A DNA stretch of 64,000 bases from IMG/VR virus record IMGVR_UViG_3300045988_135485; one strand, given 5' to 3'. Below are positions 23,286 through 40,611 of this stretch, one piece after another. The DNA is from a virus. Each line of letters begins with the position of its first letter. The stretch's first letter is position 1. The position numbers were made by a program, and so were the translations under genes. The notes under the pieces were generated by a model, which saw only the letters and a list, made by a program, of their open reading frames with translations, was not told where the DNA came from and searched no databases.

Positions 23286-23286
23286 A

Positions 23287-24539: not shown

Positions 24540-24562
24540 TTTGGTCTCCTTTCTTGCCTTGT

Positions 24563-24801: not shown

Positions 24802-25199
24802 ATTTCTTCTCCAAAATTAGGTTCTTGTTTTACAATAAAAATCTTTTCAGCTTTCATATCATTACTGATATTTTCTTCTTCCAAGATTTCCTTCCACTCT
24901 TTAGCTTTATCACAAGCTTTTTTATAAGTTAAATCTTTTTCTACAATCATCATGTGTTTCTTATTCCGGTATTTCAGAACCAGAAAATAAAGACTTTTCT
25001 CGTCCTTTCGCTTATAAGGAGAAACATCCTCAATAATTGAGGCCAGTTCGGCTGGCATTTCATCTTCATAAGAAGTATTAATAATAAGACCTTCTTCCCT
25101 ATAAATTTCTTTAGCTTCCTCCTTGGAATTAGCCTCAACAACATATTTTACAACTGCATTGATTTTTTGTGATTGTCTACAAGTAACTGTCCACTTCAT
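24786..25199 (-). CDS. hypothetical protein
   Basis: 137 aa ORF. Confidence 0.45.
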   Translation of the reverse strand: MKWTVTCRQSQKINAVVKYVVEANSKEEAKEIYREEGLIINTSYEDEMPAELASIIEDVSPYKRKDEKSLYFLVLKYRNKKHMMIVEKDLTYKKACDKAKEWKEILEEENISNDMKAEKIFIVKQEPNFGEEICLEM

Positions 25200-25408
25200 A
25201 TTTCCTCACCTTTTATAATTGTTAATTCACAACAATCTCTAAGATATTCTACAGCCTCTTCCAAACTATAATTGGGACAACAAGCTAGTCTGGATTCGGG
25301 AACGAACTCAAGTTGGTCTTTATAATTTTCCTCCTTAGCATATTCAATTAACTGGTTTTCAGTAAAACACCCTTTATACTTATCATAATCAATTATGAAG
25401 TATAACAT
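25196..25408 (-). CDS. hypothetical protein
   Basis: 70 aa ORF. Confidence 0.4.
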   Translation of the reverse strand: MLYFIIDYDKYKGCFTENQLIEYAKEENYKDQLEFVPESRLACCPNYSLEEAVEYLRDCCELTIIKGEEI

Positions 25409-25427
25409 ATTATTCTCCTTTCAATTA

Positions 25428-25479
25428 CATCCTTACATAGCACCCTTACATAGCACCCTTACATAGCACCCTTACATAG
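25428..25479. repeat. tandem 13-bp repeat CACCCTTACATAG x 4, intergenic
   Basis: Read directly. Confidence 0.6.
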
Positions 25480-26011
25480 CGTCAATCTTTGCAATCAATT
25501 CTCTGGCTCTTTCTTCGGTCATATTTTCTTCAGATTCAAACTCTTTTATAATCTCCAATGCTTCAGGATTCGCTACTATTCTTAATTCATAGTTCTTATC
25601 AAACATTCGACCTTCTCGAAACCAATCAAATAAAAGTGGCTCAGTTTCACCTAAATAATCCCTGATAAATTTTTCATCGTTCTCTGAAACAAAGGATGTA
25701 GAACTACCATCTGCGTCAGGCCAAGGAAAGTCATTGTCTCTCTGATACCCAATTTCCCGTTCGGCAAACTCTTCATAGGAAGCATTTTCGCCGTATTTTG
25801 CTGCCTCAATCCAAAAGTACCTATCTACATAATCAGTTGGATTTTCCTCTGCATCTTCCCATAAGGACTCAGCCCTGCTCTTAGTAATGTATTCAAGACC
25901 TATTCCTGTCGCACCTTTAAAGTCTCCATCCCAAAAAACGGCCTCGAGATATATAATTACATCATCATCATCTATACCAATTAAAATTTTATTTCTGCTT
26001 TCCAAACGCAT
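25472..26011 (-). CDS. acidic protein (candidate DNA mimic / anti-restriction)
   Basis: 179 aa, strongly Asp/Glu-rich. Confidence 0.45.
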   Translation of the reverse strand: MRLESRNKILIGIDDDDVIIYLEAVFWDGDFKGATGIGLEYITKSRAESLWEDAEENPTDYVDRYFWIEAAKYGENASYEEFAEREIGYQRDNDFPWPDADGSSTSFVSENDEKFIRDYLGETEPLLFDWFREGRMFDKNYELRIVANPEALEIIKEFESEENMTEERARELIAKIDAM

Positions 26012-26059
26012 AGCTAGTCTCCTTTCTTAAACAATCTCTTTTTTAAACAATCTCTTTTA

Positions 26060-26323
26060 TTAACCAAAAAACAATCCAGATTTAATTATAGATTTAAATT
26101 GGTAATAATACTCCTTAAATCGTTCATCATCTGATGCAATCTCTACCCAAAAAACTTCGTCTATATCCGAAGCATCATCAGAAGTCATTATAGCCCATTC
26201 TTCATACCGATACTCGTTATTAGCAAAACGAGCCAAAGTATCCATCGCTTTTAATGCCTTAACCCTATTAATCATTACCTTTTGTGTTACGTCTAAGCCC
26301 ATAATCAGTTCCCCCCTTTTCAA
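26060..26323 (-). CDS. hypothetical protein
   Basis: 87 aa ORF. Confidence 0.4.
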   Translation of the reverse strand: MKRGELIMGLDVTQKVMINRVKALKAMDTLARFANNEYRYEEWAIMTSDDASDIDEVFWVEIASDDERFKEYYYQFKSIIKSGLFFG

Positions 26324-26325
26324 AA

Positions 26326-26541
26326 TTAGTTCAAGTTTCCTTCCACAGCTATAATTTTTGGCTCGTCCGATTCAACTGCTTGATAAAATTCATCAACACA
26401 GGTTTCATCTAAGATTTCACTTTCATTGTACATACAACGCTTAGCTAGGTAGATAGCTTCTTCTGTTGAATCAGCCTCAACTTTAACTCTCCGTTTTCTG
26501 TACATTGTCTCTGTATATTCGGCATCAACTGTAAATATCAT
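26326..26541 (-). CDS. hypothetical protein
   Basis: 71 aa ORF. Confidence 0.4.
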   Translation of the reverse strand: MIFTVDAEYTETMYRKRRVKVEADSTEEAIYLAKRCMYNESEILDETCVDEFYQAVESDEPKIIAVEGNLN

Positions 26542-26759
26542 TTCTGGTCTCCTTTCACGATTTCATTTATATTCACGTTCTCATTCACGTTCTCATTCAG
26601 ATTCTCTTCCAGTTCGGCAATTCTTTTCTTAAGTTTATTCAAGTCCATTAAAACTTCAGAAAGAACCCTAACTAACATAATTGTAACATTTTGTCCGGTT
26701 ATTCGATTTATTTCTCCAGACAAAACCATTCTCAAAAGTTCACTACTATATTTATCCAT
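26538..26759 (-). CDS. hypothetical protein
   Basis: 73 aa ORF with NENVNENVN repeat. Confidence 0.4.
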   Translation of the reverse strand: MDKYSSELLRMVLSGEINRITGQNVTIMLVRVLSEVLMDLNKLKKRIAELEENLNENVNENVNINEIVKGDQK

Positions 26760-26762
26760 AGT

Positions 26763-27440
26763 TTATATTTTCCTCTCCAAAAATATTTCTTTCTTTTCCT
26801 CATCAACTGAATATTCAAAATATTCTCCGTCTTTATACAAACAAAGTCTTTCATATAAGCAGTCGTCAGCAAATGATACCAGTTCTTCTTCATAAAACAA
26901 ATTCCCAAATCTAGCCTCTTCCTCCTCCATTTTTGTAAGAAGATGGAACTCAAACATTACCTGCCATTTTCTAGTATCTTCCCACTCCTTAAATTCCTCA
27001 ATTTTATTTGGAACAAAGGAAATAAATCCACTATAACTAGTAAAATTATCTTTTAAATAGTTAGCAAATTTTTCTCCGTTTTCGAAATAACAGTAATTTT
27101 CTAAAGCTTCCTCATCAACTGTAACATTAGCTATAATCTTGTCATTTCTATAGTTATAGAACCGAGGAGAATCTATGTCAACAAACTCAAATTTTGTTAC
27201 GATATTTTTATCCAAATAATCGCTTAGTAATTCAACAGCCTTTTCTCCAACCTCCTTTTCAAAAGCTGAAAAATCGTCTATTTCCCATTCATACCCTTCT
27301 GGCATTTTAAAATCAGGATATTGTTCTGTTAAATAAAAAAGGCTATCACAGTTATATAAATTCGTTTCATAAAAACCTTGAAAAATCTTTGTAGACCAGC
27401 TTACATATTCAAAAGTAATCATTTTTCTATTCCTTTCCAA
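26763..27440 (-). CDS. hypothetical protein
   Basis: 225 aa ORF. Confidence 0.45.
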   Translation of the reverse strand: MERNRKMITFEYVSWSTKIFQGFYETNLYNCDSLFYLTEQYPDFKMPEGYEWEIDDFSAFEKEVGEKAVELLSDYLDKNIVTKFEFVDIDSPRFYNYRNDKIIANVTVDEEALENYCYFENGEKFANYLKDNFTSYSGFISFVPNKIEEFKEWEDTRKWQVMFEFHLLTKMEEEEARFGNLFYEEELVSFADDCLYERLCLYKDGEYFEYSVDEEKKEIFLERKI

Positions 27441-27907
27441 AAAATATCGTCCAAAGGGATTGTCTTTTTAGCTCTGGACAAAGCTATTGCTACTGCCGCT
27501 CTCATGTCCTCTCTTGTAGCCGGAAGAGGGTTATCTTCATTGAAGAGAACTAAATATCTTTCAAAACCTAGATTTTCGCAAACTTCCACGTCTATCAAGT
27601 CAACCAGCTCTTCAACCTCTTCCGGATTTGGAACTTGACTTAGAGAGGGGATAACTCTGTAATGCAACGGATGTACACAATAAGGGACACGACAAACTTT
27701 CCTCAACTCATATCCCGGAATAAGTACCCCCTCCTCTTTCATAGTTTTTTCCAAAGCTAATCTGATTTTAGACCGATTATGATTTTCAGGAACCCAATGG
27801 CCTTTATCTAAATTAACTTTATATGATTTTAAAGTTATGATATAATCCAAAAGAGGACTATGCTCGGGATTACGTACTGCATTTTCAACTGCATTCTCTT
27901 TAGACAT
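27419..27907 (-). CDS. hypothetical protein, possible HNH-like motif (CRVPYCVHPLH)
   Basis: 162 aa ORF. Confidence 0.4.
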   Translation of the reverse strand: MSKENAVENAVRNPEHSPLLDYIITLKSYKVNLDKGHWVPENHNRSKIRLALEKTMKEEGVLIPGYELRKVCRVPYCVHPLHYRVIPSLSQVPNPEEVEELVDLIDVEVCENLGFERYLVLFNEDNPLPATREDMRAAVAIALSRAKKTIPLDDIFWKGIEK

Positions 27908-28130
27908 CTTCGTTCTCCCTAAAATATTTAGCCTCGTTAGTATAAGCTTCTAATAAACTAGTTTCATCTAATTCTGGACAACGGCTTATATAATAGCTCT
28001 GTCCATCTGGTTGAAGCATATCTTTTCCAAATTTAACGGCCTTCTCTTTTGAATCAAATTCAAGAATATACTTCAAAAGCCAGTTTTCTTTAGGAGAAAC
28101 AATATAAACCGTCCAAGTCTTTTCAGTCAT
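27900..28130 (-). CDS. hypothetical protein
   Basis: 76 aa ORF. Confidence 0.4.
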   Translation of the reverse strand: MTEKTWTVYIVSPKENWLLKYILEFDSKEKAVKFGKDMLQPDGQSYYISRCPELDETSLLEAYTNEAKYFRENEDV

Positions 28131-28149
28131 GGTCTTACTCCTCTTTCAA

Positions 28150-28593
28150 TTATATTTTTGATTTTCTCGTATAGTGGTCTCTACTATACAAGAAATCCCA
28201 ATAACGACTCAACTCATCCAACATATTATACATAGTAAGTTCTAAAGTAGATGGATTTATTTCCTGACCGTTAATCCCCTCTTTTGGAGCAACAGTTAAA
28301 AAGAGATAATTACCATCTCCGTTATCTCTCCAATACTCATAAGAACTTACGTCATAGAAAAAATAAATACTGACATGACGTAATTCCACCTTTAGTTTAT
28401 CAGCTTTTTTATAAAAGGCATAATAACCTTTTTTATTAAAACAATCGGTTCTTAAATCTACTCTGAAATCAAAAATATCTTCACCATTTTCTTCATAAAA
28501 AACATCAACTTTTGTTGATAAACTATCGGCTAGAGCTTCCCAATCGCGGCTAGAAAATACTTTTTCAGTCATAATTTTACTCCTTTTCTTCAA
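28150..28593 (-). CDS. hypothetical protein
   Basis: 147 aa ORF. Confidence 0.45.
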   Translation of the reverse strand: MKKRSKIMTEKVFSSRDWEALADSLSTKVDVFYEENGEDIFDFRVDLRTDCFNKKGYYAFYKKADKLKVELRHVSIYFFYDVSSYEYWRDNGDGNYLFLTVAPKEGINGQEINPSTLELTMYNMLDELSRYWDFLYSRDHYTRKSKI

Positions 28594-28901
28594 TCTTTTT
28601 CGCTTTCGGAATCAGAATCGCTTTCGTCTTCCTCGTCCTCGTCATCTTCGTCCTCGTCCTCATCATCTTCACAATCACAATCGCAATCATTTATACCAAC
28701 CAAGTCAAAGCACCACTCCCAGTCAAACCATAGGAGGTCGTTCATAGTTACTTCCGGGATTCCGTCAGGATAAAGTTCCCGAATCTGGGCCGAGAACGCG
28801 TCCGCTTTCCCGGCATCGACTATTTTCTCTTTTGTATTTATGGCTGTTTCACCCCATGGTTCAAATTCTTCTAAGTCAAAATCTTTACAAATCATATACA
28901 T
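28590..28901 (-). CDS. protein with extremely acidic C-terminal tail (DCDCDCEDDEDEDEDDEDEEDESDSDSESEKD)
   Basis: 103 aa ORF with a 20-bp palindrome 50 bp upstream. Confidence 0.5.
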   Translation of the reverse strand: MYMICKDFDLEEFEPWGETAINTKEKIVDAGKADAFSAQIRELYPDGIPEVTMNDLLWFDWEWCFDLVGINDCDCDCEDDEDEDEDDEDEEDESDSDSESEKD

Positions 28902-28950
28902 TTTTATGTTCCTTTCAATTTCTGTTCAATTTTCCTATTCTTCTTTCAAT

Positions 28951-28970
28951 TTGTTCCAACGTTGGAACAA
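28951..28970. promoter_or_regulatory. 20-bp perfect palindrome TTGTTCCAACGTTGGAACAA (operator-like)
   Basis: Read directly; about 50 bp upstream of the gene starting at 28901. Confidence 0.6.
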
Positions 28971-28987
28971 CTTGGGTAATTTTATGG

Positions 28988-29653
28988 TTAAATCATTTTT
29001 ATAAACTTTTTCGCCTCTTCAACTGAAAAAGCTTTGCAAAAATCATCCGGGAAATTGTTATACATTGCTTCAAAAGCTTTATCAAAGTCGCTATCAATAA
29101 AGCCGCTTAAATTATCCTCCTCTTCATCATTTCTAAAAAGATGATACTCCCAACATTCGCAGTTGGCCCAATCAGAATACTGTTTAACTTCCGTCTTTAC
29201 CCAATAATCGATTTTTTTCTTAAATTTGACAGAAATCCGATGCTTTTTAAATTCCCGGTAAATATGTGCCTTTTTTACTAAATAGAAACCTATACATCCG
29301 CAATCCCAGCCAGTTGATTTTCCAATAAACATATTCCATCCGCTGTGGTCGTAGACAGATACAGGATAAACAATAAAACCCATTTCCTCTAAACGTTTTT
29401 TGTCTGTCTGGTAATTACCAGATGACCAATCGGAAAAGTCGCCTGTTTCTGTAAGTTCATTCTCAACGTACTCACAAGAATTTTTTACAAAAAACTTACC
29501 AATAAGGCAATCACAATCGTTGCGAGGATTGTCGCAGAACCGGTCTCTGGTTATTTCAATTCTCCAGTTCTCTAATTTAGGGTCAATAACTCCCGGCAAT
29601 TCATACTGAATCTCGTTCTGGATTACGTTCTGAATCTCGTTTGCATTAATCAT
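28988..29653 (-). CDS. hypothetical Cys-rich protein
   Basis: True start MINANEIQ preceded by AGGAAAGGA. The track ORF extends through the palindrome using a TTG start. Confidence 0.45.
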   Translation of the reverse strand: MINANEIQNVIQNEIQYELPGVIDPKLENWRIEITRDRFCDNPRNDCDCLIGKFFVKNSCEYVENELTETGDFSDWSSGNYQTDKKRLEEMGFIVYPVSVYDHSGWNMFIGKSTGWDCGCIGFYLVKKAHIYREFKKHRISVKFKKKIDYWVKTEVKQYSDWANCECWEYHLFRNDEEEDNLSGFIDSDFDKAFEAMYNNFPDDFCKAFSVEEAKKFIKMI

Positions 29654-29701
29654 AACTTGTTCCTTTCCTAAAACAAATTCAAGTTGTTCAAGTGGTTTAA
29701 G

Positions 29702-29721
29702 TTGTTCCAACGTTGGAACAT
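29702..29721. promoter_or_regulatory. palindrome copy (18-bp perfect TGTTCCAACGTTGGAACA)
   Basis: About 50 bp upstream of the start at 29653. Confidence 0.6.
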
Positions 29722-29802
29722 TTACATTCTTCTAGAATGTTAATAATTTAGTTTTGTCTAAATAAGATGAAAAAATATTTTTGTGCTGTATTTGTCTAAA
29801 AA

Positions 29803-29994
29803 TTAACCTACTTTTGAGTATGTAAAAATAGGTCGAAATTTACATACAAATTGGTATATATAATAATTTGTTGCTGTCTTCCTAAATTGTGTATTTGTGT
29901 ATTTTCGGAAATGTATCCAAAAATACATCTGAAGATACGCAACCAATAAGCCAACTATTAAACCAGTCAATAAAATGGTTATTAAACCAGTCAT
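29803..29994 (-). CDS. small N-terminal-TM protein
   Basis: 63 aa ORF. Confidence 0.3.
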   Translation of the reverse strand: MTGLITILLTGLIVGLLVAYLQMYFWIHFRKYTNTQFRKTATNYYIYQFVCKFRPIFTYSKVG

Positions 29995-30008
29995 TAAACC
30001 CCACTTTT

Positions 30009-30215
30009 TTAGGCAGTGGTTGCATACACTGTCCTCTCTGGTACCCCCCTACCTGAAAGTAGGCTCATATTACTCACAGCTAAAATTTTGAAGATTTTAC
30101 CATCTTGAGAAAAGACACAGAGGCGGGGGCGTTTCTCAAAAAGGTCAAATTCGAGTTTTACAACCATGTTTTGTTTGGCATATTTCACGATTAAGTCGGA
30201 TAAGTTCTTTACCAT
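30009..30215 (-). CDS. hypothetical small protein
   Basis: 68 aa with AAAGGAAACAA upstream. Palindrome and 14-bp direct repeats lie 25-85 bp upstream. Confidence 0.4.
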   Translation of the reverse strand: MVKNLSDLIVKYAKQNMVVKLEFDLFEKRPRLCVFSQDGKIFKILAVSNMSLLSGRGVPERTVYATTA

Positions 30216-30273
30216 CGTTTGTTTCCTTTCAGTTGTGTTACCATGGTTTGTTTACCATGGTTTGTTTGCTAGG

Positions 30274-30293
30274 TTGTTCCAACGTTGGAACAA
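30274..30293. promoter_or_regulatory. palindrome copy (20-bp perfect)
   Basis: About 60 bp upstream of the start at 30215. Confidence 0.6.
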
Positions 30294-30341
30294 TCTTAAA
30301 ATGAACGCGGAATCTTTTCCCAAAATTCTCCCCAAATTGAT

Positions 30342-30410
30342 TCCGGATTTTGTTTCCAAATCTCGTCCGGAATCTGGTCCGGATTCTGGTCGGAATTGTC
30401 GCCGGAAAAA
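30342..30410 (+). repeat. iteron-like direct repeats TCCGGA(A/T)T(C/T)TGG (about 4 copies, 12-bp period)
   Basis: Read directly; related CCGGATTCCTG repeats at 31226-31254 and 18-bp repeats at 31456-31510. Confidence 0.6.
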
Positions 30411-31040
30411 GTACTCAGTTTTATTCCCTCCCTAGACAAAGAGACGGAATTTTGAAAAAAAGGTATTATTCTACCTTTTTTGGACAGAAAAATGAAAAAA
30501 ACTAGAACCAAGATAGAACAATTATTTCACCATCTTTGACCAAGTTGTTGTTTTTACTCTTTTGTCTAGTTTTTTTTTGAGTTGACAGACTATTTTAAAT
30601 TGTCTCTATATAGAATTTTTTTATAAATACCCCATAGGGTATATTTATCTTATTTTTTTTCCGTGAATCTTAAAAAAAAAAAAAAATCTATTTTAGACAA
30701 AATATATAAAAACAATGGGTTAGATGTAAACTACTCCAGTGGTGTTCTAATAATGTTCAAGTGGTTAAAAAAAAGCGGGTCCTTATTTTATTGTATAAGT
30801 TTCATTTGTCTAATTTGTCAGATGTTTTTTCTTGGTTTTTCAATGGCTTATTTTATTTTCTCCTTATATAGTAAAAATGATACGTTTCAGTCTAAAAAGT
30901 GGTTCTTTGTCTAGACTGTGAAAGTGCTTGAAACGGGGAACGCCTTTGTCTATCTGGCATAGACGGGGTGTGGACGAAATTCCGCCCTTTCTTCTGTCAA
31001 GAAAATGTCTAACAGTCTAAAATCGACAAAATCTGTCAAT

Positions 31041-31057
31041 TTTCCAACGTTGGAACA
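31041..31057. promoter_or_regulatory. palindrome copy (TTCCAACGTTGGAA, 14-bp core)
   Basis: Read directly. Confidence 0.55.
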
Positions 31058-31069
31058 CGGAGTCAATTT

Positions 31070-31087
31070 TGTTCCAACGTTGGAACT
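31070..31087. promoter_or_regulatory. palindrome copy (GTTCCAACGTTGGAAC, 16-bp)
   Basis: Read directly; 29 bp from the previous copy. Confidence 0.6.
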
Positions 31088-31204
31088 TTTTCGGAATCCC
31101 TTAATATGATTCCAAAACTTTTTCGCGCGCCATCTTAAGCGGCCATTTAATATATAAATTAAAGAAAAATAAAGAAAAGATATAAAGAGAATCCCGCCCG
31201 GGAC

Positions 31205-31224
31205 TTGTTCCAACGTTGGAACAA
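31205..31224. promoter_or_regulatory. palindrome copy (20-bp perfect)
   Basis: Read directly; just downstream of the 266-aa gene. Confidence 0.6.
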
Positions 31225-31255
31225 ATCCCGGATTCCTGCCCGGATTCCTGCCCGG

Positions 31256-32056
31256 TTAGGCGGCCAACTTTTCGGTTGTTTGTATTTTCTGGTATGCCTG
31301 TGTTATCACTTCCACAACGTCGCCCGCCATCGTAACCGCCTCGCCATAACCGTAAATCTTAACAACGTTATCAAACGCGGTTATAAATTCGCTGGCTGCT
31401 TGCATCAATACGACTTCCGGCGGAAGTTGTACCGATTCCGGGCTGTTTTCCGTTCCCGTTTCTGAATCTGATTCCGGGTTAGATTCTGATTCCGGGTTAG
31501 ATTCTGATTCGTCGCTTGTGCTCGGCTTCGGCTGTTTTTCTGGCTTAAGAGCGTCATACAAACCGCGCAAACTTTCATAGTTTGCAAAAATACTGCCCGT
31601 TATTTCTGCAATAGCCGCGGCGGGCGTGCCTATTATGTTAGACTCTTTAATAATATCGCGGTTTAATTCGATTAATTTTAATGCCGCTTTAATTTTAGCG
31701 TAGATGGATGATTTTTGCGGGTGTGTCCGAATATCCGCGTTTATTTTAAATAAGTGTAAAATTATGTGCTTTCTGAATCCTTTTTCATCCATCTTTTTAT
31801 TAAAAGTCGAGTAATATAAACGGGCTTTAAAGATTGACTTTACAACGGCGAGTCCAGCTAATCCGGCTTTGTTTTCCGCGTTTGTTTCTCTTAAATAGGC
31901 ATTGTAACCCTCTTTTAAATAAGATAAAACTACTTCTTTCGGCTCGCCTGTAAAGTCATTTGACAAACGAACGTTGCGGGCGTTATTCTCATTTAACGGC
32001 TTATAGTCTGGCTTGTGCAGAGGTTGGGATGACTGGTTAATATGTTTAATAGACAT
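31256..32056 (-). CDS. hypothetical two-domain protein with acidic SESNPE-repeat linker (candidate origin-binding initiator or regulator)
   Basis: 266 aa. The linker-coding DNA (31456-31510) is itself an iteron-like 18-bp tandem array. The gene is flanked by palindromes and repeat arrays. Confidence 0.5.
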   Translation of the reverse strand: MSIKHINQSSQPLHKPDYKPLNENNARNVRLSNDFTGEPKEVVLSYLKEGYNAYLRETNAENKAGLAGLAVVKSIFKARLYYSTFNKKMDEKGFRKHIILHLFKINADIRTHPQKSSIYAKIKAALKLIELNRDIIKESNIIGTPAAAIAEITGSIFANYESLRGLYDALKPEKQPKPSTSDESESNPESESNPESDSETGTENSPESVQLPPEVVLMQAASEFITAFDNVVKIYGYGEAVTMAGDVVEVITQAYQKIQTTEKLAA

Positions 32057-32221
32057 GATTTTGACTCCTGTATATAAAATGTTAATAAATGTTAATAGCT
32101 GTTATTTTCTTAATGATTCCACAAGCCCGCAAATAGCGGTGTATATGGTTATAAATAATATTGTGTAAATAGCTAGTGTAAACATTGATGACTCCTTTTA
32201 GTTGGCTTATATGTTTATTTA

Positions 32222-32241
32222 ATGTTCTAACGTTAGAACAT
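32222..32241. promoter_or_regulatory. symmetric variant palindrome ATGTTCTAACGTTAGAACAT
   Basis: Both half-sites carry the same C-to-T change, so dyad symmetry is kept. About 165 bp upstream of the 266-aa gene. Confidence 0.55.
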
Positions 32242-32275
32242 CTTTGATTTAGGCAATATTCAGATATTACCGATA

Positions 32276-32299
32276 CGCGGGGGCGGCAACCCCCGCGCG
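32276..32299. other. GC-rich hairpin CGCGGGGG-cggcaa-CCCCCGCG (no T-tract)
   Basis: 8-bp GC stem in an otherwise AT-rich region. Confidence 0.5.
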
Positions 32300-32638
32300 G
32301 TTTGCATAAAATTTACTTATTCACAATGTGCTATAACTACCAGCCGCCCGGCTGATGACTGTTATATATAAGCTAATTAGTTACTTGTCAACTACTTTTT
32401 TGCACTTTTTTTAAAAAAAGTACACTTTTTTTAGTAAGTCATTGTTTTTGCGTGATTCTTTTTTTATGTTAAGTTTATTATAAGGTATACACACGGGCAC
32501 GTGCTATACATGCAAACGTAACCTTTACATATAGGCCGGGTGATAGGGGTGTAGGCTTTTTATATGGGAGAATAAAAAGGTGGCGGAGAACAGGCCCCGA
32601 TTCTGACCCCCCGCCCAAAACCATTTCCACCTAACACA

Positions 32639-32712
32639 ACCTACCAACTTACCTACCAACTTACCTACCAACTTACCTACCAACTTGCCTACCAACTTGC
32701 CTATCACCTGAC
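32639..32712 (+). repeat. tandem 12-bp iterons (A/G)CCTACCAACTT x about 6
   Basis: Read directly. Followed by TTCGCGGTC-type repeats (32720-32780) and CGACCAGAA repeats (32848-32900). Confidence 0.65.
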
Positions 32713-32919
32713 AGGACCGCGAACGCGAGCGCAGTCACTTTCGTGTTCGCGGTCGCATTCGCGGTCACGTTCGTTTTCATTTTTGAGGTTCTCAGCAAGG
32801 GGAACGACCACGAACACGAACGCAAAAGCCGACATAAACTTGACAAGAATCTTAACCAGAACTAGAATCTTAACAGTCGACCAGAATAATCGACCAGAAC
32901 AGGGAGGGAGAAACAACAA

Positions 32920-33402
32920 ATGGATTCAATGATAGCAGGCAACAGCCAAAATCAAAATGCACAAAATCTTAAACATAACTTCAAACAGATAACCTATACC
33001 AAAAACTCAACTAAACAGAAAGAGGAGCGTGCCTTCTTCAAGAATCGTGTTAAGAAAGCATTTCTTCACTGGTTATATTACAAGGGGCTCATTCCGTGGA
33101 AAGAGCTCCCTTCTTTTTTAGATGTTCACCACAAGCATCCGCTAGGCGGTGGCGGCAGCAATGAATTTACCAACTTGGTAATAATGGTCAGGCGAGACCA
33201 TGAGAAAATGAACAGGGAAATAATAGAGCCGCAGTTGCGTGGCATTCGGGAGGGTGAAACCAGAGAAATAACGGTTCCTTGGTGGAACTCTGAGAAGGGA
33301 GAATTTATTGATTGGGAAGGCATATACCGGTATTTGGAAGAGCTCGAACGCTCTCGACGTATGCGTTCCTCCGATCGCGCATGCGGTCGCGGAGGTAGAT
33401 GA
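32920..33402 (+). CDS. HNH endonuclease
   Basis: 160 aa with DVHHKHPLGGGGSNEFTNLVIMVRRDH core (H-N-H). Confidence 0.65.
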   Translation: MDSMIAGNSQNQNAQNLKHNFKQITYTKNSTKQKEERAFFKNRVKKAFLHWLYYKGLIPWKELPSFLDVHHKHPLGGGGSNEFTNLVIMVRRDHEKMNREIIEPQLRGIREGETREITVPWWNSEKGEFIDWEGIYRYLEELERSRRMRSSDRACGRGGR

Positions 33403-33565
33403 CGGTTGCATACACGAACATATATATGATTGTGTATGCGACCATATATGCAAAAAATTTGCACATATTAGCGGGAAAAGAGGTCATTCAATACACTTTT
33501 TGCAAATAAATGCTAAAAAAGAGGCTTTTTTGCGGTTTTTAGCATTTATTTGCAAAAAAGTGTAA

Positions 33566-33611
33566 GAAAAAGGCCATTCTGTGTGAAAAAATCACACAGA
33601 ACGGCCTTTTT
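33566..33611. terminator. bidirectional rho-independent terminator
   Basis: Stem GGCCATTCTGTGTGA/TCACACAGAACGGCC flanked by an A-run and a T-run. Preceded by a roughly 20-bp-arm palindrome at 33500-33555. Confidence 0.55.
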
Positions 33612-33659
33612 TAGCTTAAATTGGTTGATTTTGACCAATTTTGGTTCATCTCGGCGTAT

Positions 33660-33989
33660 TTATGAAAAGATTCCTCTATCTCGATACTTTTTTACCTGTT
33701 TCCGGTCCTGAATCTCGGCTCGTTTGCGTAGCCTTTTGGCTTTTTTATAGACCTCTCCGGTTACTTTCTTGCCTTCAAGAACGTATATGACAGCCTCCTT
33801 TTCCACAACCTCCTTTTCCTCAACCGATTCTACAGGTCGCTCTGCAAGCGGGCACCCGTCGTCTTGTCCATTGTGAGTCCATTCACCATCAAGCCATCGA
33901 CTTGAAAGCCCATAAAGTTGCCTAATTCGGTCAGCCTCCGTAAGAAGCCTCTCAACCCCACAGGCCTTGCACGGATAGTCGCACAGCAA
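33660..33989 (-). CDS. hypothetical protein (overlaps primase 3' end in another frame; doubtful)
   Basis: 109 aa ORF with a 160-nt overlap. Confidence 0.25.
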   Translation of the reverse strand: MLCDYPCKACGVERLLTEADRIRQLYGLSSRWLDGEWTHNGQDDGCPLAERPVESVEEKEVVEKEAVIYVLEGKKVTGEVYKKAKRLRKRAEIQDRKQVKKYRDRGIFS

Positions 33990-36340
33990 AAGCTCGTGTA
34001 TTTTTCGTACAGAGAATTTACCAATACTGAGCCGCTCCCGGTTTCCGTCCTCCTCGGTCCCTCCTCCGAGGTCAGGTAGAAAAAAACTGAGTCATTCTCA
34101 CTGGCCATCTCCCTGATTATCTGTTGATGGCTGCTTGGTAAAGTAAAATCTCTTTGCTCTACCAATTCTCTAACGCAGGAGATAACCCATGCGGCAATGC
34201 CCTCTCTCTCCTCAGCGACTATTGTTTCACCAATGTTGCGGACTTTATCCTTCTTTTTAACCGCATGGTTGAACGTAAGAATGAGCCATCGTCTATTGAA
34301 TCCTTCCGATACGTCCTTTGTCTTTGGCAGGTAGTTACTGGCAAACCAATGCGTCGCCATCGGCGTAAAGGAAAATATCGGTCTTCCTTTGTACTGGCCA
34401 TCTAAGGTACTTCCGTCAATAATCGATTTAAAACTTGCTCCCGGAATCGGTTGCGATTCGTTTAACTCGCCACAAATGTTTAAAAGGGATTTGGATAATT
34501 CCGTTACTTCGAATTTATCTTCAAACTTGTAGGGAGTTACATATGAAATAACCTCCTTGGGTAGTAAGTGTTTAACTATTTCCAATAATTGAGATTTACC
34601 CGAGCCCGCAATACCATAGAGAAGAATGGCTCTGGCAAATGAGGGCCCCATTCCGAAGAAGGTTGCACACATCGCTTCCTGAAGAGCTCTCTTTCTCGCT
34701 TCAAAATCCAGTTCCATACCCCAAATTGATTCCAGAAACTTATCAAATCTAGGATGATGGTCAACAAGCTCAGGTACATATCTGAAGGGCAGCGTATAGG
34801 TACATCCGAAGGAAGGGTCGTGAGGAAAGGTCATTCCGTCACTGCTTACGAAACAGTTTGCAAAATTGACACCCTGTATTTTTCTACTATTCAGGTCAGT
34901 TTGAGGAACAATTGACTTTAATACTTTCAAAACCCCGGCATGATCGTGAGCCTTTCTTGCAGCAGGAAGATTCCCGTAATTGTTAGCTACTAAACAAAGT
35001 ATTTCCTGTTCAGACAATACTTCCCAGTTGGAGCCCTTATACTGCCAGAATTTATCATTCCAGAAGTGAACTTCTCCTATTCTCTTCAGGTCTTCCAGCA
35101 CGGCTCTGGCTATTTCCGTGTGGTCAATTCCCTCCAGTTCTCCCCGTCGCAGTTCCTGTAGACGTTTCTTTAGGCTAGGAACCTGAATAGTTTTACTGTT
35201 AGTTTGTTTTATGTAGGTGAAGACCGTATCTATTTCTAAGGACGTTAAATGCGGAGAACGACTAATTCTGCGTAGAACATATTCTATGGCCGAAATCCTT
35301 TGAATAGCCCCCTCATCTTCGTATTTTTCAAACTCGGTCTTGAGATAATCTTTCAGTTGTTCTACCGACCATTCGTTATGTTCGGCATCGAATTTAAGAC
35401 CCCAGCTTTCTTTCTGTTCCTCGGTAAGTCCGGTATCCCATCCGAGAGGAAGCGGTTTATTTTTCGGGCCTACAACATCCTGAATCAGGAACTGAATGAG
35501 GTTGCGGACACCTTTCTCGATGTCAATGTCGTCTCCGGCCACATTCTCAACACAGCAGGTTTTCCATACATACATACGGTCTATTGCTTCCAGCAGCGAT
35601 AACTCTCCTCTGGTTACTGCATTTGCATAGAAGCCTGCCATCGTGGTCATCTTTACGTCACGGCTTCCCTGAGAAACGTAATCCGTAGTTCTGGTCCAGC
35701 CTGCGTGAGACAGCGTAATTCCGTAATCTTGGAAAGCGTTCCTTAACATGGATTCGAGGTTTTCCGGAAGAGGTTTCAGATAAGGTATAACCTCTGTAAT
35801 CGGTTGATTACAAACGTACGGCTTCTGTGTTTTGGGATGTATTGACGGTGGTAGAACCACTTGGTTGCCGGAAGATAGACATTCACAAATCATGTGACCG
35901 TCTACGTCTTTAATTTTAAACGGTTTCTCTCCTTTATATTTATAAAGGAGAACTTTTCCCTTTTGTCCGACACGTTCCCAAGGAGAATATCCACAGATTT
36001 CATTGATTATATTAATAAGTGTCTTATTCTCGGTATCAATATCAATGGCAACACATCCCGACTGCGGTCCTAACGGCAATCCTATGTTACTGTCCGGGAA
36101 ATTGTTTAGCCAGTGGTCTTGTTCCTGAGGAAGCGGCATCTTGTCCTTATAAGAGGTCCAGTTTATCGGAATCGGTTCCTTGCCGCGAGGGCGTAACGGT
36201 ATTACCGGAAGCCCTTTTTGCCAAAGAAGCGGGGCATTATTCTTGAAAAGGTCCTTATTCGGGAAAAGAGTTATGTTTTGGGAGATTTTTTCTTTCTCTT
36301 CTGCTAAGTCCTTGGCTAGTTTTAAAGTATTACCTGTCAT
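33830..36340 (-). CDS. primase-helicase (prim-pol N-terminal domain, PriCT/D5_N, SF3 helicase; P4 alpha-like)
   Basis: 836 aa with Walker A GIAGSGKSQ. The domain order is typical of phage/plasmid P4-family primases. Confidence 0.8.
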   Translation of the reverse strand: MTGNTLKLAKDLAEEKEKISQNITLFPNKDLFKNNAPLLWQKGLPVIPLRPRGKEPIPINWTSYKDKMPLPQEQDHWLNNFPDSNIGLPLGPQSGCVAIDIDTENKTLINIINEICGYSPWERVGQKGKVLLYKYKGEKPFKIKDVDGHMICECLSSGNQVVLPPSIHPKTQKPYVCNQPITEVIPYLKPLPENLESMLRNAFQDYGITLSHAGWTRTTDYVSQGSRDVKMTTMAGFYANAVTRGELSLLEAIDRMYVWKTCCVENVAGDDIDIEKGVRNLIQFLIQDVVGPKNKPLPLGWDTGLTEEQKESWGLKFDAEHNEWSVEQLKDYLKTEFEKYEDEGAIQRISAIEYVLRRISRSPHLTSLEIDTVFTYIKQTNSKTIQVPSLKKRLQELRRGELEGIDHTEIARAVLEDLKRIGEVHFWNDKFWQYKGSNWEVLSEQEILCLVANNYGNLPAARKAHDHAGVLKVLKSIVPQTDLNSRKIQGVNFANCFVSSDGMTFPHDPSFGCTYTLPFRYVPELVDHHPRFDKFLESIWGMELDFEARKRALQEAMCATFFGMGPSFARAILLYGIAGSGKSQLLEIVKHLLPKEVISYVTPYKFEDKFEVTELSKSLLNICGELNESQPIPGASFKSIIDGSTLDGQYKGRPIFSFTPMATHWFASNYLPKTKDVSEGFNRRWLILTFNHAVKKKDKVRNIGETIVAEEREGIAAWVISCVRELVEQRDFTLPSSHQQIIREMASENDSVFFYLTSEEGPRRTETGSGSVLVNSLYEKYTSFCCATIRARPVGLRGFLRRLTELGNFMGFQVDGLMVNGLTMDKTTGARLQSDL

Positions 36341-36882
36341 AATCTATATTTCCCCTCTTCAATAACCTTCGTTGTACCTAACCCTGTCCCCGGTTCTGTA
36401 CCTAATTCTTCTCTACTTTCCGATTCTGCGAGTTCTCTTAAGAACATTTCTCTTTGTTCAGGAAGAACCTTTTTTAGAATCTTCAAGACTTTGGATTCAA
36501 ATTCCCGCATTTGATTCAGATTTGTTGCTCTCTCCGCCAACGTAAGCAGCTTCTCCAGCTGGGTGGTTGCCGTTCTTTGGATAGAAGCTTTGTCTTTATC
36601 GTCTATTTCGTTGGATTTAAGTAATTCTTTAGTTTGCCAGTACAGATTAATTATTTCTGTCTTCAGGTCTAAGTTTGTCATGGTAGGAAGGTCTGCCTTT
36701 GACGAACTTTCTCCGGTGTTAATACTAACCGGTGGGAAAATAAGGTTGAGAGACTTTTTGATAGGTTCTGAATATGGAGATTCGGCTACATACTTAGGGT
36801 TTTTTTTTATCTCTAATCCTATAGAATAAATCTTAAAAACGGTCTCATAATTTATATCAGGATATTTATTGTTTTGAGCCAT
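36337..36882 (-). CDS. hypothetical coiled-coil protein
   Basis: 181 aa ORF immediately upstream of the primase. Confidence 0.45.
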   Translation of the reverse strand: MAQNNKYPDINYETVFKIYSIGLEIKKNPKYVAESPYSEPIKKSLNLIFPPVSINTGESSSKADLPTMTNLDLKTEIINLYWQTKELLKSNEIDDKDKASIQRTATTQLEKLLTLAERATNLNQMREFESKVLKILKKVLPEQREMFLRELAESESREELGTEPGTGLGTTKVIEEGKYRL

Positions 36883-37096
36883 GGGTCGATTCTCCGTTTA
36901 AAATTAAAGGTTCTGAAGAAGTATGGTTTTTAAAAAGTTCTACATCTGTAAGTAGAAAATATACCTTTCCTCCTAAAGTTCTTCGGGGAACTAATGAACC
37001 CTTCTTTATATAGCGGTAAATGGTTTGGTAAGAAACACCGACCCTTTTGGCAAAGCTTTCAATGCTTATGCGTTTATCTCTATCAGTAACTTCCAT
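36866..37096 (-). CDS. HTH DNA-binding protein (excisionase/AlpA/MerR-like)
   Basis: 76 aa with FAKRVGVSYQTIYRYIKKGSL. Confidence 0.6.
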   Translation of the reverse strand: MEVTDRDKRISIESFAKRVGVSYQTIYRYIKKGSLVPRRTLGGKVYFLLTDVELFKNHTSSEPLILNGESTHGSKQ

Positions 37097-37384
37097 AATC
37101 CCTCCCTAAATGTTATGGTATGTTAGGTTGTGTAAAGTGGTGGTAGTCTACGATATATTTTTGTAAATGTCAAGCAAAAAACCTCAGTTTATTCAACTGA
37201 GGTTTCGGTGGAACTAATTAAGAAAAATAATATGTAGGTGTTTAATGATTCATGCGTCAAACTGTTATTAACTGACTAGCTATTCTTGGATTCGATTATC
37301 TTATATCTTATATAAAATACTTTGTCAATAGAAAAGTTGACTATTTTAAAAAATAGGTTTAGGCTGTGCTAAAACGGAGGTAAA
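37097..37384. promoter_or_regulatory. divergent promoter region with two inverted repeats
   Basis: Inverted repeat AAACCTCAGTT-n6-AACTGAGGTTT (37178-37205) overlaps reverse-strand TTGACA-17-TAGACT. Palindrome CTATTTTAAAAAATAG (37341-37356) sits between plus-strand TTGACT and TAGGCT upstream of terL. Confidence 0.5.
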
Positions 37385-39115
37385 ATGAAATACGTCTTCT
37401 CAAATAATCCTTATCTTCAAGCCTTAGCAGAAAAAGTCATAAGACAAAAGACCGATTCTGATATGGCCGAATGGGTTTGTAATAACACAACCTTAGCCGG
37501 GGGACCGTTTTCTTTGAAGAATAGGGGTTATCAGAGAGCCGTATTGGCTGATATGCACCCTAACCTTTGTTGTAAGAAGTTATCCCAAATCGGAATGACT
37601 GAATGTCAGATTCGTAAAGCTCTTGGTTTTATGGTAATGAACCCCGGAACCCGCGTTCTTTATACTTTTCCGACTAAGATATTGAAAGATAATAACAGTG
37701 CTCCTCGTATTCGCCCTATTTTTGATACGGACTTTCCGGGACAAGGTGATATAAGAAATAATAATATTCTTCAGATAGGTTCATCTTTCTTATATATTTC
37801 CGGTGGTTCCGAATCCGATGTTACATCTACGCCGGTAGATATGATTTTAAATGACGAAATTGATTTGGGAACATCAGAATTTTATGCCTTGGCTAATTCC
37901 AGACTTCAAGCGTCCGTCTATCAAATTAAACAAAGCTTTTCCACCCCTACCTTTGAAAATTTCGGTATCTCAGCTGATTATAATTCTTCTGACCAACGGG
38001 AATATTTTGTGAAATGCCCGCATTGTAACGAATGGCAGGTACCTCTTTATGACCTAGAATCCGTATATATTCCTAAGTTACCAAAGTTTATCCAAAGGCT
38101 TACAGATATAAAAGAGGACGTAGCCGTAGGATTAGATTACGACAATTCTTGCGTCGTATGCAAAAAGTGTCGGCATCCGCTTGATTTATCTGATGACGCT
38201 ATTCGGGAATGGGTTCCCACCTATCCGTCCAGAGAACATCACAGAGGATACCAGATTCGTCCATTTAGTACCAATTTATTGTCTATTAAATACTTGGTAA
38301 TGACAATGGCCGATTGTATAAAAAGAGGTCAAATCCGCCGCGGATATAATACGGTTCTTGGAGAAGAATATAAAGAGGGAGACGCTCGTATTGACGTTAA
38401 GGCGATTAAGAAATGCTTTAAATCGCAGGTAGTTCCGGAAGTTTCGCCGGATAAACCTGTATATATAGGTATAGATGAAGGCCTAACCTGCCATATAGTC
38501 CTTTACACAGACGGGGCGGCCTTCGCCTTTATTAGGGTTATTTACGACCAACTGTTGAGTAAAGTAAAGGAATTGGATAAGAAATACAATATTGTTGCCG
38601 GAGCTATCGACCGTTATCCTTATACTCCTTTATCAAATGATATTAGAGATATGACTGAGGGCCGTATCCAGCCAGTAGTTTACGGAGGCCAGAAGATTGC
38701 TGAGCCTAAACACGAACAAGATAAAGCAGTATCTTTCTATATGTGTAACCGTACCCACGCCCTTGATGCAGTTAAGTCTAAGATAGTGAACGGAGAGATT
38801 GATTTTTACGGTTATTATGACCAAGAAGAATTAATCACCGAGCATTTACAAGACATGGCCAGAGAAGACGTTCCCGGAAAACAACCTGAGTGGGTAAAGT
38901 TGAACGGGAATGACCACTATTTTCATGCGCTTGGATACGCTCTTTTAGCCAAACAGATAAAATATGTAGCCGGTCTCGGTCTAAAAAATGAAGACAGAAC
39001 AATAATTAGCTTGACAGGTCCAGAAGAAAATTATAAAAATAAGGATAAGATGAAGGATAGGTCTAACCTGTGTGGCTATATGAGTGGCTATTCAACTAAC
39101 AGGTTATTGTATTAG
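37385..39115 (+). CDS. terL: terminase large subunit (GpA-type)
   Basis: 576 aa with Walker A-like region, CPHCNEWQ zinc motif and CVVCKKC. Confidence 0.8.
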   Translation: MKYVFSNNPYLQALAEKVIRQKTDSDMAEWVCNNTTLAGGPFSLKNRGYQRAVLADMHPNLCCKKLSQIGMTECQIRKALGFMVMNPGTRVLYTFPTKILKDNNSAPRIRPIFDTDFPGQGDIRNNNILQIGSSFLYISGGSESDVTSTPVDMILNDEIDLGTSEFYALANSRLQASVYQIKQSFSTPTFENFGISADYNSSDQREYFVKCPHCNEWQVPLYDLESVYIPKLPKFIQRLTDIKEDVAVGLDYDNSCVVCKKCRHPLDLSDDAIREWVPTYPSREHHRGYQIRPFSTNLLSIKYLVMTMADCIKRGQIRRGYNTVLGEEYKEGDARIDVKAIKKCFKSQVVPEVSPDKPVYIGIDEGLTCHIVLYTDGAAFAFIRVIYDQLLSKVKELDKKYNIVAGAIDRYPYTPLSNDIRDMTEGRIQPVVYGGQKIAEPKHEQDKAVSFYMCNRTHALDAVKSKIVNGEIDFYGYYDQEELITEHLQDMAREDVPGKQPEWVKLNGNDHYFHALGYALLAKQIKYVAGLGLKNEDRTIISLTGPEENYKNKDKMKDRSNLCGYMSGYSTNRLLY

Positions 39116-39123: not shown

Positions 39124-40611
39124 ATGGCAGGAATCAGTTCATTATTTGAGTTTATACTTCCAACTAAAAAGGCAAAGACTGACGGTAATGCTTATACTGA
39201 TACTTACCGCCCCGGCGGAAGTGCCAGCACTTTAACTGCTCCCGATTATATGGAGCATATTGAAGACCTTTATGATACAAGGGTTAGTGAAGATTCAAAC
39301 GAACTTTTACAAAACCTTTTTCGGCAAGACCCTGATTGCTCCGCAGCGGTAAATGCTTTTTTAACTGTATCTGATACAAAAATGGTCTATTATGCAGTTG
39401 ACGCTGAGGGAGAAATAAGTCAAGAAGGAACTAAGACCCTTGAATATCTTATTAATAGGATTACTTTTAGAAATGATTACACATTAAATTATCAAATGAA
39501 GCCTTCTCTTAGTTCTTTAAGAGAAGAGTTAAAGTATATGTGTCTTTTAAGAGGAGCTGTTGGAGCCGAGCTGGTATTTGATAAAACATTGCTCCCAAAA
39601 GAAATCAGAAATGTTGATATGCATTTTGTTGAATGGACGGAAAATAAGAACGGGGAATATAAACCGATTCAGAAGACTGATGAATCAGGTGAAGAAGTGA
39701 GCCTTGATATTCCTACATTCTTCACAGCCTTTTTCCGTAGAGACCCGACCAGTCCTTATACATATTCTTTCTTTGTAAGTGCTATAAATGTTATCGCCGC
39801 CAGACAACAGGTAATTAATGACCTGTATCGGATTATGAATATAACAGGCTTTCCACGCATTGATTTAACGGTGATGGAAGAAATTATAAAAAACAATATG
39901 CCCGCTGAAATTAAGGCTAATCCGGATAAATATAGAGAATATGTAAATAGCACCGTTAATACTATTGCTAATTCTTTTGCCAGTATTAAGCCTCAATATC
40001 CTATTGCCCACACTGACGCTGTTCAAGCTAAGATGCTGAATGAAAAAGGTCCGGGAAGTTCTTTACAGATTGCAGAAGTAATTGATACACTGAATGCCCA
40101 GAACCAAGCCGCAATGAAGGTCGTAAGTGCCGTACTCGGCCGCGGTTCTTCAGGTGTAAATACAGCATCTGTCGAGGCTAAAGTTTTTGCAGACAACGCA
40201 GCAGCTTTAAATAAACCGATTGACCATCTTCTTGAAGAAATATTTACACTGGCTTTGCGTATGTCCGGTTTTGATGGAAAGGCTGTTATGTATTCAAAGG
40301 GAGTTGACCTTAGACCAGAACTTGAATTGGAAAATCAACTAACAATGAGACAGGCTCGTTTACTGGAACAGCTCTCTCTTGGTATTATAACCGACCTTGA
40401 TTTTCACCTTTTAATGAATGACCGAGTTCCGATCGGACAAATTACTCAGTTATCAGGAACTAATTTCCAGTCTAATAAAATGAATACAACGGATACCACT
40501 TCAAACACTGACCCTCTTGGAAGGAGTTTAACAGCTGAAGGTGGAGATATGGCAAAGTCAAACAGTAACAAAACAACTAAGGACCAGCAGAAAGGGAAAG
40601 ACTTAAATTGA
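39124..40611 (+). CDS. portal protein
   Basis: 495 aa immediately after terL. Confidence 0.7.
   Translation: MAGISSLFEFILPTKKAKTDGNAYTDTYRPGGSASTLTAPDYMEHIEDLYDTRVSEDSNELLQNLFRQDPDCSAAVNAFLTVSDTKMVYYAVDAEGEISQEGTKTLEYLINRITFRNDYTLNYQMKPSLSSLREELKYMCLLRGAVGAELVFDKTLLPKEIRNVDMHFVEWTENKNGEYKPIQKTDESGEEVSLDIPTFFTAFFRRDPTSPYTYSFFVSAINVIAARQQVINDLYRIMNITGFPRIDLTVMEEIIKNNMPAEIKANPDKYREYVNSTVNTIANSFASIKPQYPIAHTDAVQAKMLNEKGPGSSLQIAEVIDTLNAQNQAAMKVVSAVLGRGSSGVNTASVEAKVFADNAAALNKPIDHLLEEIFTLALRMSGFDGKAVMYSKGVDLRPELELENQLTMRQARLLEQLSLGIITDLDFHLLMNDRVPIGQITQLSGTNFQSNKMNTTDTTSNTDPLGRSLTAEGGDMAKSNSNKTTKDQQKGKDLN

Follow-up and report, generated by a model that had tools for sequence, protein, structure and literature searches.

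A candidate inner edge of a long direct terminal repeat in the repeat-dense non-coding block of an uncultured phage genome

Sequence-defined genome ends with long direct terminal repeats (DTRs) are known in principle from phages T7, T5 and SPO1. At the concatemer junction of T7, arrays of short repeats border the terminal repeat, which the terminase cuts in a sequence-specific manner, as reportedly laid out by Dunn and Studier in 1983 and in the T7 packaging literature. The long terminal repeats of T5 and SPO1 carry early 'host-takeover' genes and have repeat-dense non-coding DNA at their inner end. To our knowledge, the signal that fixes the ends is not known for most families with long DTRs, and metagenome-assembled genomes carry no end information. 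Here, a stretch of viral DNA of 64,000 nucleotides (IMG/VR record IMGVR_UViG_3300045988_135485; hereafter the window) was analysed with respect to the non-coding block at positions 32057–32919. The block is located between an open reading frame (ORF) reading leftward, orf266 (31256–32056, minus strand), and an HNH-type nuclease gene (32920–33402, plus strand). We consider it probable, at about 55%, that it straddles the inner (primase-proximal) edge of a ~2-kb DTR in a human-gut siphovirus-like phage belonging to the family of Seuss, JWF, Lumi and EAb13.

Searches with the large terminase (TerL; 37385–39115, plus strand) and with the PrimPol/D5-type primase-helicase, the anchor gene of the family (33830–36340, minus strand; identified with Pfam and PHROG), returned one and the same set of isolates, comprising the Achromobacter phages JWF and 2-1, the Caulobacter phage Seuss, the Xylophilus phage Lumi and the Acinetobacter phages EAb13, TCUP2199 and Mystique. 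Of these, Seuss, Lumi, EAb13, JWF and 2-1 are 37–39% identical to the window in TerL and 32–45% in the primase. The synteny primase(-), orf181(-), terL(+) is conserved between the window and its relatives, and the pair primase(-)/terL(+) is found in all isolates. DTRs of 1,748 bp in Seuss (determined with PAUSE on raw reads; PMC4591317), 2,177 bp in EAb13 (PhageTerm; PMC10508131) and 2,298 bp in Lumi (PhageTerm; PMC9959647) have been reported. The records of JWF and 2-1 contain exact end duplications of 1,466 bp and 1,542 bp, respectively, and in all five relatives the repeat starts shortly past the 3' end of the primase gene. Since each of the five relatives with defined ends has DTRs, the Seuss/JWF/Lumi/EAb13 family packages its DNA via long direct terminal repeats, not cohesive ends. 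The TerL of the window, assigned with Pfam, PHROG and homologues, has a gpA-type ATPase (PHROG 675). It is gpA/SPO1-like, and its distant matches derive mostly from phages of Bacillus, Staphylococcus, Enterococcus and Listeria; SPO1-like phages of these hosts package long DTRs.

In all five isolates, the primase-side edge of the DTR lies inside one ~110-nt module. This module consists, in order, of a GGGTA..TTTTT box (box 1), a GAGAAC/GATCATGCC-like G-rich box, a C-run and an A/T box of the form A4-6T4-5. Box 1 has the consensus GAAGGGTA-n5-6-TTTTT and is located inside the repeat, 65–71 nt before the A-run. The distance from the last DTR base to the A/T box is 22 nt in Seuss, 21 nt in Lumi and EAb13, 20 nt in 2-1 and 7 nt in JWF. 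A hidden Markov model (HMM) was built from 24 distinct module sequences, most of them from GC-rich genomes (the family HMM), and matched 32 of 80 related IMG/VR loci at E<0.01. All module matches have the same orientation and are situated 83–2700 bp downstream of the primase gene. No published description of the module was found in the literature searched, which was a limited set. Tandem arrays were observed beside the module, on its primase side and at a distance of 27–131 nt, in Seuss and in the IMG/VR loci L017, L021, L061 and L080, and in Lumi an array lies ~85 nt beyond the A/T box. The array units differ lineage by lineage, and most family members have no array. It is possible, at somewhat less than even odds, that the two-box module represents a signal, not described before, at which the terminase binds and cleaves in a widespread family of long-DTR siphoviruses of Caulobacter, Achromobacter, Xylophilus and Acinetobacter with many metagenomic members including the clade of the window, with a cut at a fixed offset of ~21 nt from the A/T box, with ends that would be predictable from sequence alone in metagenomic contigs and with arrays that would be a part or by-product of end duplication. 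The module provides the family as a whole with a candidate packaging signal, and offers a means to orient and delimit related metagenomic genomes.

The window carries a putative degenerate copy of this module on the plus strand (32546–32640), recognized by the order and spacing of its boxes and by a reciprocal HMM search. Read by eye, its elements follow one another in the order GGGGTGTAGGCTTTTTATAT, GGTGGCGGAGAACAGGCC, CCCCCCGCCC, AAAACCATTT and CCACCTAACACAA. They include box 1 (GGGGTGTAGGCTTTTTATAT, 32546–32565), the motif GAGAACA (32586–32592) and the A/T box (AAAACCATTT, 32617–32626), all on the plus strand, with a C-run between GAGAACA and the A/T box; box 1 precedes the A-run by 71 nt, compared with 65–68 nt in the relatives. 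Relatives of the window at strain and species level were obtained from several ENA assemblies, including a record labelled as human gut metagenome, and from the IMG metagenome 3300045988. No near-identical DNA was found in isolated phages when the window was compared with 50,697 phage records, and searches of IMG/VR with exact and degenerate module patterns for further relatives of the clade returned only contigs already known. The reciprocal HMM was made from positions 32536–32645 of the window, their strain variants and a species-level relative (L009). It was run against ~0.9 Mb of family loci from which the clade of the window had been left out, with reversed sequences serving as decoys. 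Its top match was the module of locus L017, which was recovered at full length (E=0.0011, 18.4 bits; best decoy 6.5 bits), followed by the module of locus L068. L017 is the nearest outgroup of the clade, with a primase 61% identical to that of the window. Because the reciprocal HMM hits the L017 and L068 modules and the decoys score lower, the segment 32546–32640 is taken as an orthologous, degenerate copy of the family module, which would make the module weakly traceable into an uncultured human-gut clade. The segment is conserved between two hypervariable flanks; in L009, the module copy is partial and degenerate, and an array lies beside it.

The position of the edge was predicted in two ways. 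Transfer through the alignment with L017 (GAGAATA|GTT) placed it at 32592|32593, and the rule of 20–22 nt, applied to the A-run at 32617, placed it at 32594–32596, in agreement with the former. We infer that the inner edge of the DTR is located at ~32592–32596. Compared with the five isolates, the window has the same order of repeat, (cargo), primase(-), orf181(-) and terL(+), a putative two-box module located downstream of the primase gene on the same strand, and an ORF of 195–266 amino acids that reads away from the edge as the first gene of the (in the window, predicted) repeat. As in Seuss and Lumi, the unique side of the module (in the window, the predicted one) is occupied by tandem arrays. 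The window differs in base composition, with ~33–46% G+C in 1-kb bins compared with 61% and 57% for the genomes of Seuss and Lumi and similarly much higher values for JWF and 2-1. The genes of its predicted repeat show no sequence similarity to the repeat genes of the relatives, whose ends are known from reads or records, whereas those of the window phage are predicted from sequence alone.

Several observations weigh against this reading. In contrast to the five isolates, the window has a degenerate A/T box (AAAACCATTT), and the family HMM gave no significant match anywhere in the 64-kb window. Its best match there was to the G/C hairpin and an adjoining AAAATTT (32265–32314; 6.3 bits, E=0.41), and the module segment was touched only by the fifth match (32541–32602; 4.4 bits), which covers model positions 20–81 only; the two matches share the expected orientation and fall within the block. 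The distance from the GAGAAC box to the A/T box is ~5 nt longer than the family spacing, and the window is linked to the family via a single intermediate, L017, at E=1e-3. Within the family, the recorded edge of JWF is 13 nt off the position seen in the other four isolates, module-adjacent arrays occur in just 5 of 31 IMG/VR loci, and the outer edge of the repeat can be placed by analogy only. The hairpin at 32265–32314 was also considered as the module itself and rejected, as its match was not significant, it is not accompanied by a box 1 and an HMM of its own found nothing above reversed decoys.

If the block straddles a DTR edge, its left ~535 bp (32057 to ~32594) would be inside the repeat and comprise the promoter and leader of orf266, a palindrome, the G/C hairpin and an AT-rich stretch. 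The terminase would recognize the module on concatemers and cleave ~21 nt ahead of the A/T box, which in the window corresponds to ~32592–32596, thereby generating the right genome end, and the single copy of the repeat present at each concatemer junction would then be duplicated as in T7. The right ~325 bp would be unique DNA with unstable tandem and inverted repeats and the promoter of the HNH gene, the arrays acting as loosely constrained accessory binding sites or arising as slippage products of end processing. The outer edge may tentatively be placed at 30560–30700, by analogy to the relatives. This region contains the strongest AT trough of its surroundings (deepest at 30640–30700, with 15% G+C) and T/C-rich runs, and the first 60–100 nt of the DTRs of Seuss, Lumi and EAb13 are likewise very AT-rich and T/C-rich, unlike the start of the DTRs of JWF and 2-1. 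An outer edge near 30.6 kb would tentatively yield a DTR of ~2.0 kb carrying orf266 and four palindromes. No motif shared by the outer DTR edges of the five isolates was found, with AT-richness seen in three of the five only, and a search for direct repeats between the two non-coding blocks that might mark both edges gave chance-level matches only. The analysis thus makes a testable prediction for the ends of the window phage, at ~32.59 kb and, tentatively, at ~30.6 kb.

Metagenome contig ends were rejected as a proxy for physical genome ends, as they fall in arrays, palindromes and strain-variable segments (29957, 31186, ~32690 and 33627) and as a collapsed DTR gives no break in the assembly graph. 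Some IMG/VR contigs of the family (L034, L019/L020) end in very AT-rich, T/C-rich sequence resembling the left ends of Seuss, Lumi and EAb13, and in L034 this end and the module are 1,734 bp apart. Such contig ends may correspond to true physical ends of the genomes.

The predicted arrangement resembles the T7 junction in that the ends would be fixed and defined by sequence, with one copy of the repeat per junction to be duplicated, and in that short tandem arrays and G/C hairpins adjoin the repeat. It differs from T7 in the ~2-kb, gene-bearing repeat, compared with 160 bp, and in its gpA/SPO1-like terminase, which is not T7 gp19-like; in addition, no T7-like RNA polymerase was noticed in the window, and the window shows no sequence similarity to the T7 junction. 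With T5 and SPO1, it would have in common a long repeat that carries genes and, close to the inner boundary, early-type promoters, palindromes and non-coding DNA dense in repeats. The repeat would be shorter, however (~2 kb, compared with 10–13 kb), the repeat-borne genes are not homologous, and two-step injection is unevidenced for the window phage.

The first-pass annotation had proposed the block as a cos/pac site or a replication origin. Its tie to genome ends and packaging is retained here, whereas a cos site conflicts with the DTRs of all five relatives and the origin is weakened. None of the elements that had been listed first is the conserved part of the block, which is the two-box module at 32546–32640. 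The cos model, in which an HK97-like cohesive end is cut by the terminase together with the adjacent HNH nuclease, builds on an HNH-type gene that does abut the block (32920–33402, with a visible HH..N..H motif), much as an HNH gene lies next to the cohesive end in HK97-like cos phages, and on the lack of a recognizable gene for a small terminase. The annotation had noted that none precedes terL, and the interval from 37097 to 37385 contains no ORF of 40 amino acids or more. Cooperation of the two enzymes is nevertheless not borne out, given that the HNH gene lies 4 kb from terL and apart from the portal gene, with the oppositely oriented primase operon (primase, orf181 and a gene for a helix-turn-helix (HTH) protein) in between. 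HNH genes are not conserved in the family: most members have none, or instead carry unrelated HNH_3 genes or other cargo at this place. The match of the window protein to Pfam HNH is itself weak (E=0.008; 16.7 bits, below the cut-off of 21.4 bits), and its homologues in isolated phages are distant and only mid-genome genes of SPbeta-like and crAss-like phages, those of the latter being annotated as HNH. Among 31 distinct loci with a module, the gap between the primase gene and the module is 83–673 bp in 20 and >900 bp in 11. This slot contains a PF01844-type HNH gene in L034, two HNH_3 genes in JWF and 2-1, a GH19 lysozyme-like gene and a MazG gene in L075, and ORFs without a Pfam match or not scanned in the other gaps of >900 bp. 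Because the content of the slot varies across the family and the homologues are mid-genome genes elsewhere, the pattern is one of accessory or mobile cargo rather than of a co-factor in packaging, although the gene is stable within the clade (L009 carries a 69% identical orthologue). An HNH gene beside a repeat-dense block hence does not imply an HK97-type cos site, and we regard such a site as highly improbable here. A replication origin resembling those of P4 or SaPIs, with the 12-mers and the TTCGCGGTC repeats as iterons that border an AT-rich unwinding region and serve as binding sites of the neighbouring PrimPol/D5 primase-helicase, would suit the proximity of the block to the primase-helicase gene, the conserved AT-rich stretch at 32380–32480, the direct repeats and a relaxed DnaA box at 32317; in SaPIs and in some phages of Streptococcus, the origin is found immediately downstream of the gene for a D5-type helicase. 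The array, however, has 6 copies in the window and ~1.5 in sister strains (L005, L007) with primases that show 100% identity in the best-matching segment, and L009, with a primase that is 91% identical and near-unchanged in its C-terminal region, has an unrelated 13-mer array (five copies) at this position and no TTCGCGGTC segment. The unstable copy number and the replacement of the unit in L009 speak against the arrays being iterons read by the primase-helicase. DnaA boxes are not enriched in the window (11, compared with 7.6 expected), with one in the block, and in most relatives the primase gene and the module are separated by 83–670 bp of array-free DNA. An origin thus appears unlikely, and 12-mers in tandem next to the gene of a primase-helicase need not be iterons of one; the conserved stretch of AT-rich DNA might nevertheless act as an origin or otherwise in replication.

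Less easily set aside, if still rather doubtful, is an ordinary divergent intergenic control region that supplies promoters and operators to orf266 leftward and the HNH gene rightward and contains neutral hypervariable microsatellites, with the genome end located elsewhere or no fixed ends at all. This explanation accommodates the sigma-70-like promoter matches on both strands, the palindrome, which is one of seven spread across the early intergenic regions, the tandem arrays, which are common in the early intergenic DNA of this genome and vary freely in copy number among strains, and the failure of the family HMM to reach significance on the window. It leaves unexplained both the full-length match of 32536–32645 to the L017 module (E=0.0011, best decoy 6.5 bits) and the conservation of the module between hypervariable flanks. 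Moreover, the promoter content is not exclusive to it, being compatible with a DTR edge as well.

The left part of the block is under strong constraint, as seen in the alignments. Positions 32057–32480 are 90% (L103) and 88% (L106) identical to the window, with values of 84% and 78% for the orf266 coding DNA, and 32130–32340 includes long runs that are invariant. The leader of orf266, which contains an AGGAG ribosome-binding site (32057–32221, minus strand), is near-invariant across strains and includes a leftward sigma-70-like promoter (TTTACA-16-TATTAT, 32182 to 32155, minus strand) identified by consensus match only. Next to it, the variant palindrome ATGTTCTAACGTTAGAACAT reported by the annotation was found in place (32222–32241; DNA fold z = -4.05). 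It is a 2-mismatch variant of TTCCAACGTTGGAA and invariant in five of six strains. Exact copies of this 14-bp palindrome start at 28954, 29705, 30277, 31042, 31072 and 31208, usually as TTGTTCCAACGTTGGAACA, and the variant at 32225; the six exact copies in 28954–31221 compare with 0.31 expected and sit in the intergenic spacers of early minus-strand genes. The members of the TTCCAACGTTGGAA family resemble either operators of a single dimeric regulator or hairpins for RNA processing or transcription termination, and the variant probably serves the early region as an operator or an RNA hairpin.

The G/C hairpin (32276–32297) likewise exists as described, with an 8-bp G/C stem and no T-tract (-13.8 kcal/mol, z = -2.44, with 2 of 200 shuffles folding as well). 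It does not qualify as an intrinsic terminator, since the downstream sequence CGGTTTGCAT has no T run and the terminator scan did not list it. Substitutions in the outer stem occur singly in different strains and are uncompensated, so that there is no evidence of covariation. Further to the right, the AT palindrome (32401–32424) was also confirmed, with a fold not beyond chance for AT-rich DNA (z = -1.41; 21 of 200 shuffles). Together with three CTTTTTTTA repeats (32405, 32425 and 32458), it forms an element (32401–32466, plus strand) inside the highly conserved AT-rich stretch at 32380–32480 (21–30% G+C), a composition equally expected of promoter DNA. Between this stretch and the module, the strain alignments reveal a hypervariable segment (32485–32545), in which several metagenome contigs end and in which sister strains have a G-rich insertion of ~100 bp and (CGCGCC)n-type repeats. 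The dispersed motif CACTTTTT was not enriched window-wide (9 copies, compared with 6.4 expected). Six of the nine window copies are located in 30.0–33.6 kb (30002, 30894, 32403, 32423, 33494 and 33555), often within palindromes (GCACTTTTT...AAAAAGTGT), and similar motifs are present in the spacer between the primase and HNH genes of L009.

In the right part, which is plastic, the only elements kept are the promoter at 32840–32868 and the ribosome-binding site of the HNH gene. The 12-bp tandem array ACCTACCAACTT (32639–32712, plus strand) lies on the unique side of the predicted edge. The array of six tandem 12-bp units described in the first-pass annotation was recovered with TRF (32639–32703; 5.4 copies, 98% matches, score 116, plus a degenerate sixth copy), and only its interpretation as origin iterons is weakened by the variation in copy number and unit between relatives. 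The array is not unique in kind, as arrays with periods of 12–18 bp are common in the early intergenic DNA. It is followed by an inverted-repeat segment with TTCGCGGTC/GACCGCGAA copies (32712–32830; fold z = -4.5). The TTCGCGGTC repeats were likewise found again. Exact copies occur only three times in the 64 kb, at 32715 (minus strand), 32746 and 32758, and a further copy at 32806 (minus strand) has one mismatch. Because L009 lacks it, the segment at 32712–32830 is dispensable. A sigma-70-like promoter for the HNH gene (TTGACA-17-TAGAAT, 32840–32868, plus strand) is the best match in the region (11/12) and invariant in the strains, with TTGACA retained in L009. The 5' leader of the HNH gene (32878–32919, plus strand) contains the two copies of the annotated CGACCAGAA repeat, at 32878 and 32891, and the ribosome-binding site GGGAGGGAG.

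The gene next to the block on its left, orf266, has no known family, with no real Pfam or PHROG match, and encodes a protein with an acidic low-complexity stretch. Its homologues are confined to the clade of the window, where they show 78–95% identity and form 34 clusters (P0001–P0034). By position, orf266 is the analogue of Seuss gp003, Lumi_003 and JWF gp002, each of which is located inside a DTR. A comparison of the genes of the predicted repeat with those of Seuss, JWF, Lumi and EAb13 revealed zero sequence similarity, so the repeat content cannot be transferred by gene homology. In most public assemblies, orf266 is found on contigs of only ~1–1.8 kb, which fits a region flanked by assembly-breaking repeats or strain variation. 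Many family members have arrays of hexamer multiples (GGCGAA/GCCGAA/GCGAAG type) inside the repeat at a near-constant distance of 630–990 nt from the module, for example at 9366–9438 in L076, 9256–9293 in L081 and 9313–9349 in L088 (IMG/VR). The likely product of these arrays is an acidic low-complexity stretch in the protein of the first gene inside the repeat. The orf266 coding sequence of the window contains an array as well (31467–31510; 18 bp, 2.4 copies), and the SESNPESESNPESDSE stretch that it specifies may be the counterpart of the hexamer-multiple arrays of the relatives.

In the window as a whole, which represents a phage genome, early and replication genes are read from the minus strand as far as 32056, and structural genes, beginning with terL and the portal gene (39124–40611, plus strand), are read from the plus strand starting at 37385. 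Between the primase gene and terL lie orf181 (36337–36882, minus strand) and a gene for a 76-amino-acid HTH_17/MerR-like protein (36866–37096, minus strand). A product of orf181 acting as a hidden small terminase was considered and found unsupported by Pfam, PHROGs and PDB sequence searches. The gene, for which no family or structural match was obtained, is kept family-wide beside terL on the opposite strand and is homologous to JWF gp006, Seuss gp007 and Lumi_006. The 76-amino-acid protein is clade-specific and has a weak match to a small-terminase PHROG (E=0.0023); either of the two could be a candidate DNA-recognition partner of the terminase.

Inside 32057–32919, Rfam gave no match even at E<=1 and a tRNA scan found none; sub-threshold Rfam hits to hairpin look-alikes were obtained only at 31042–31085 and between 33039 and 33622. 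The 427-bp non-coding stretch between the HNH and primase genes (33403–33829) is a third structured non-coding stretch, with a palindrome at 33404–33443, an inverted repeat with 27-bp arms at 33492–33564 and a bidirectional terminator-like hairpin at 33577–33601; in the corresponding spacer of L009, the repeats differ and comprise two ~30-bp copies of GACACTTTTTCCTACGAAAAATGTGA. Short tandem arrays, perfect or nearly so and with a period of 12–18 bp, are numerous in 13827–33825, mostly between early genes, as at 25431–25480 (13 bp, 3.8 copies), 24563–24612, 26571–26606, 30208–30267, 30359–30396 and 31227–31255, and they are nearly missing from the structural half of the genome. The copy numbers of these early arrays vary among strains; the array at 29957–30000, for instance, has 5.7 copies in L015, and one contig stops inside it.

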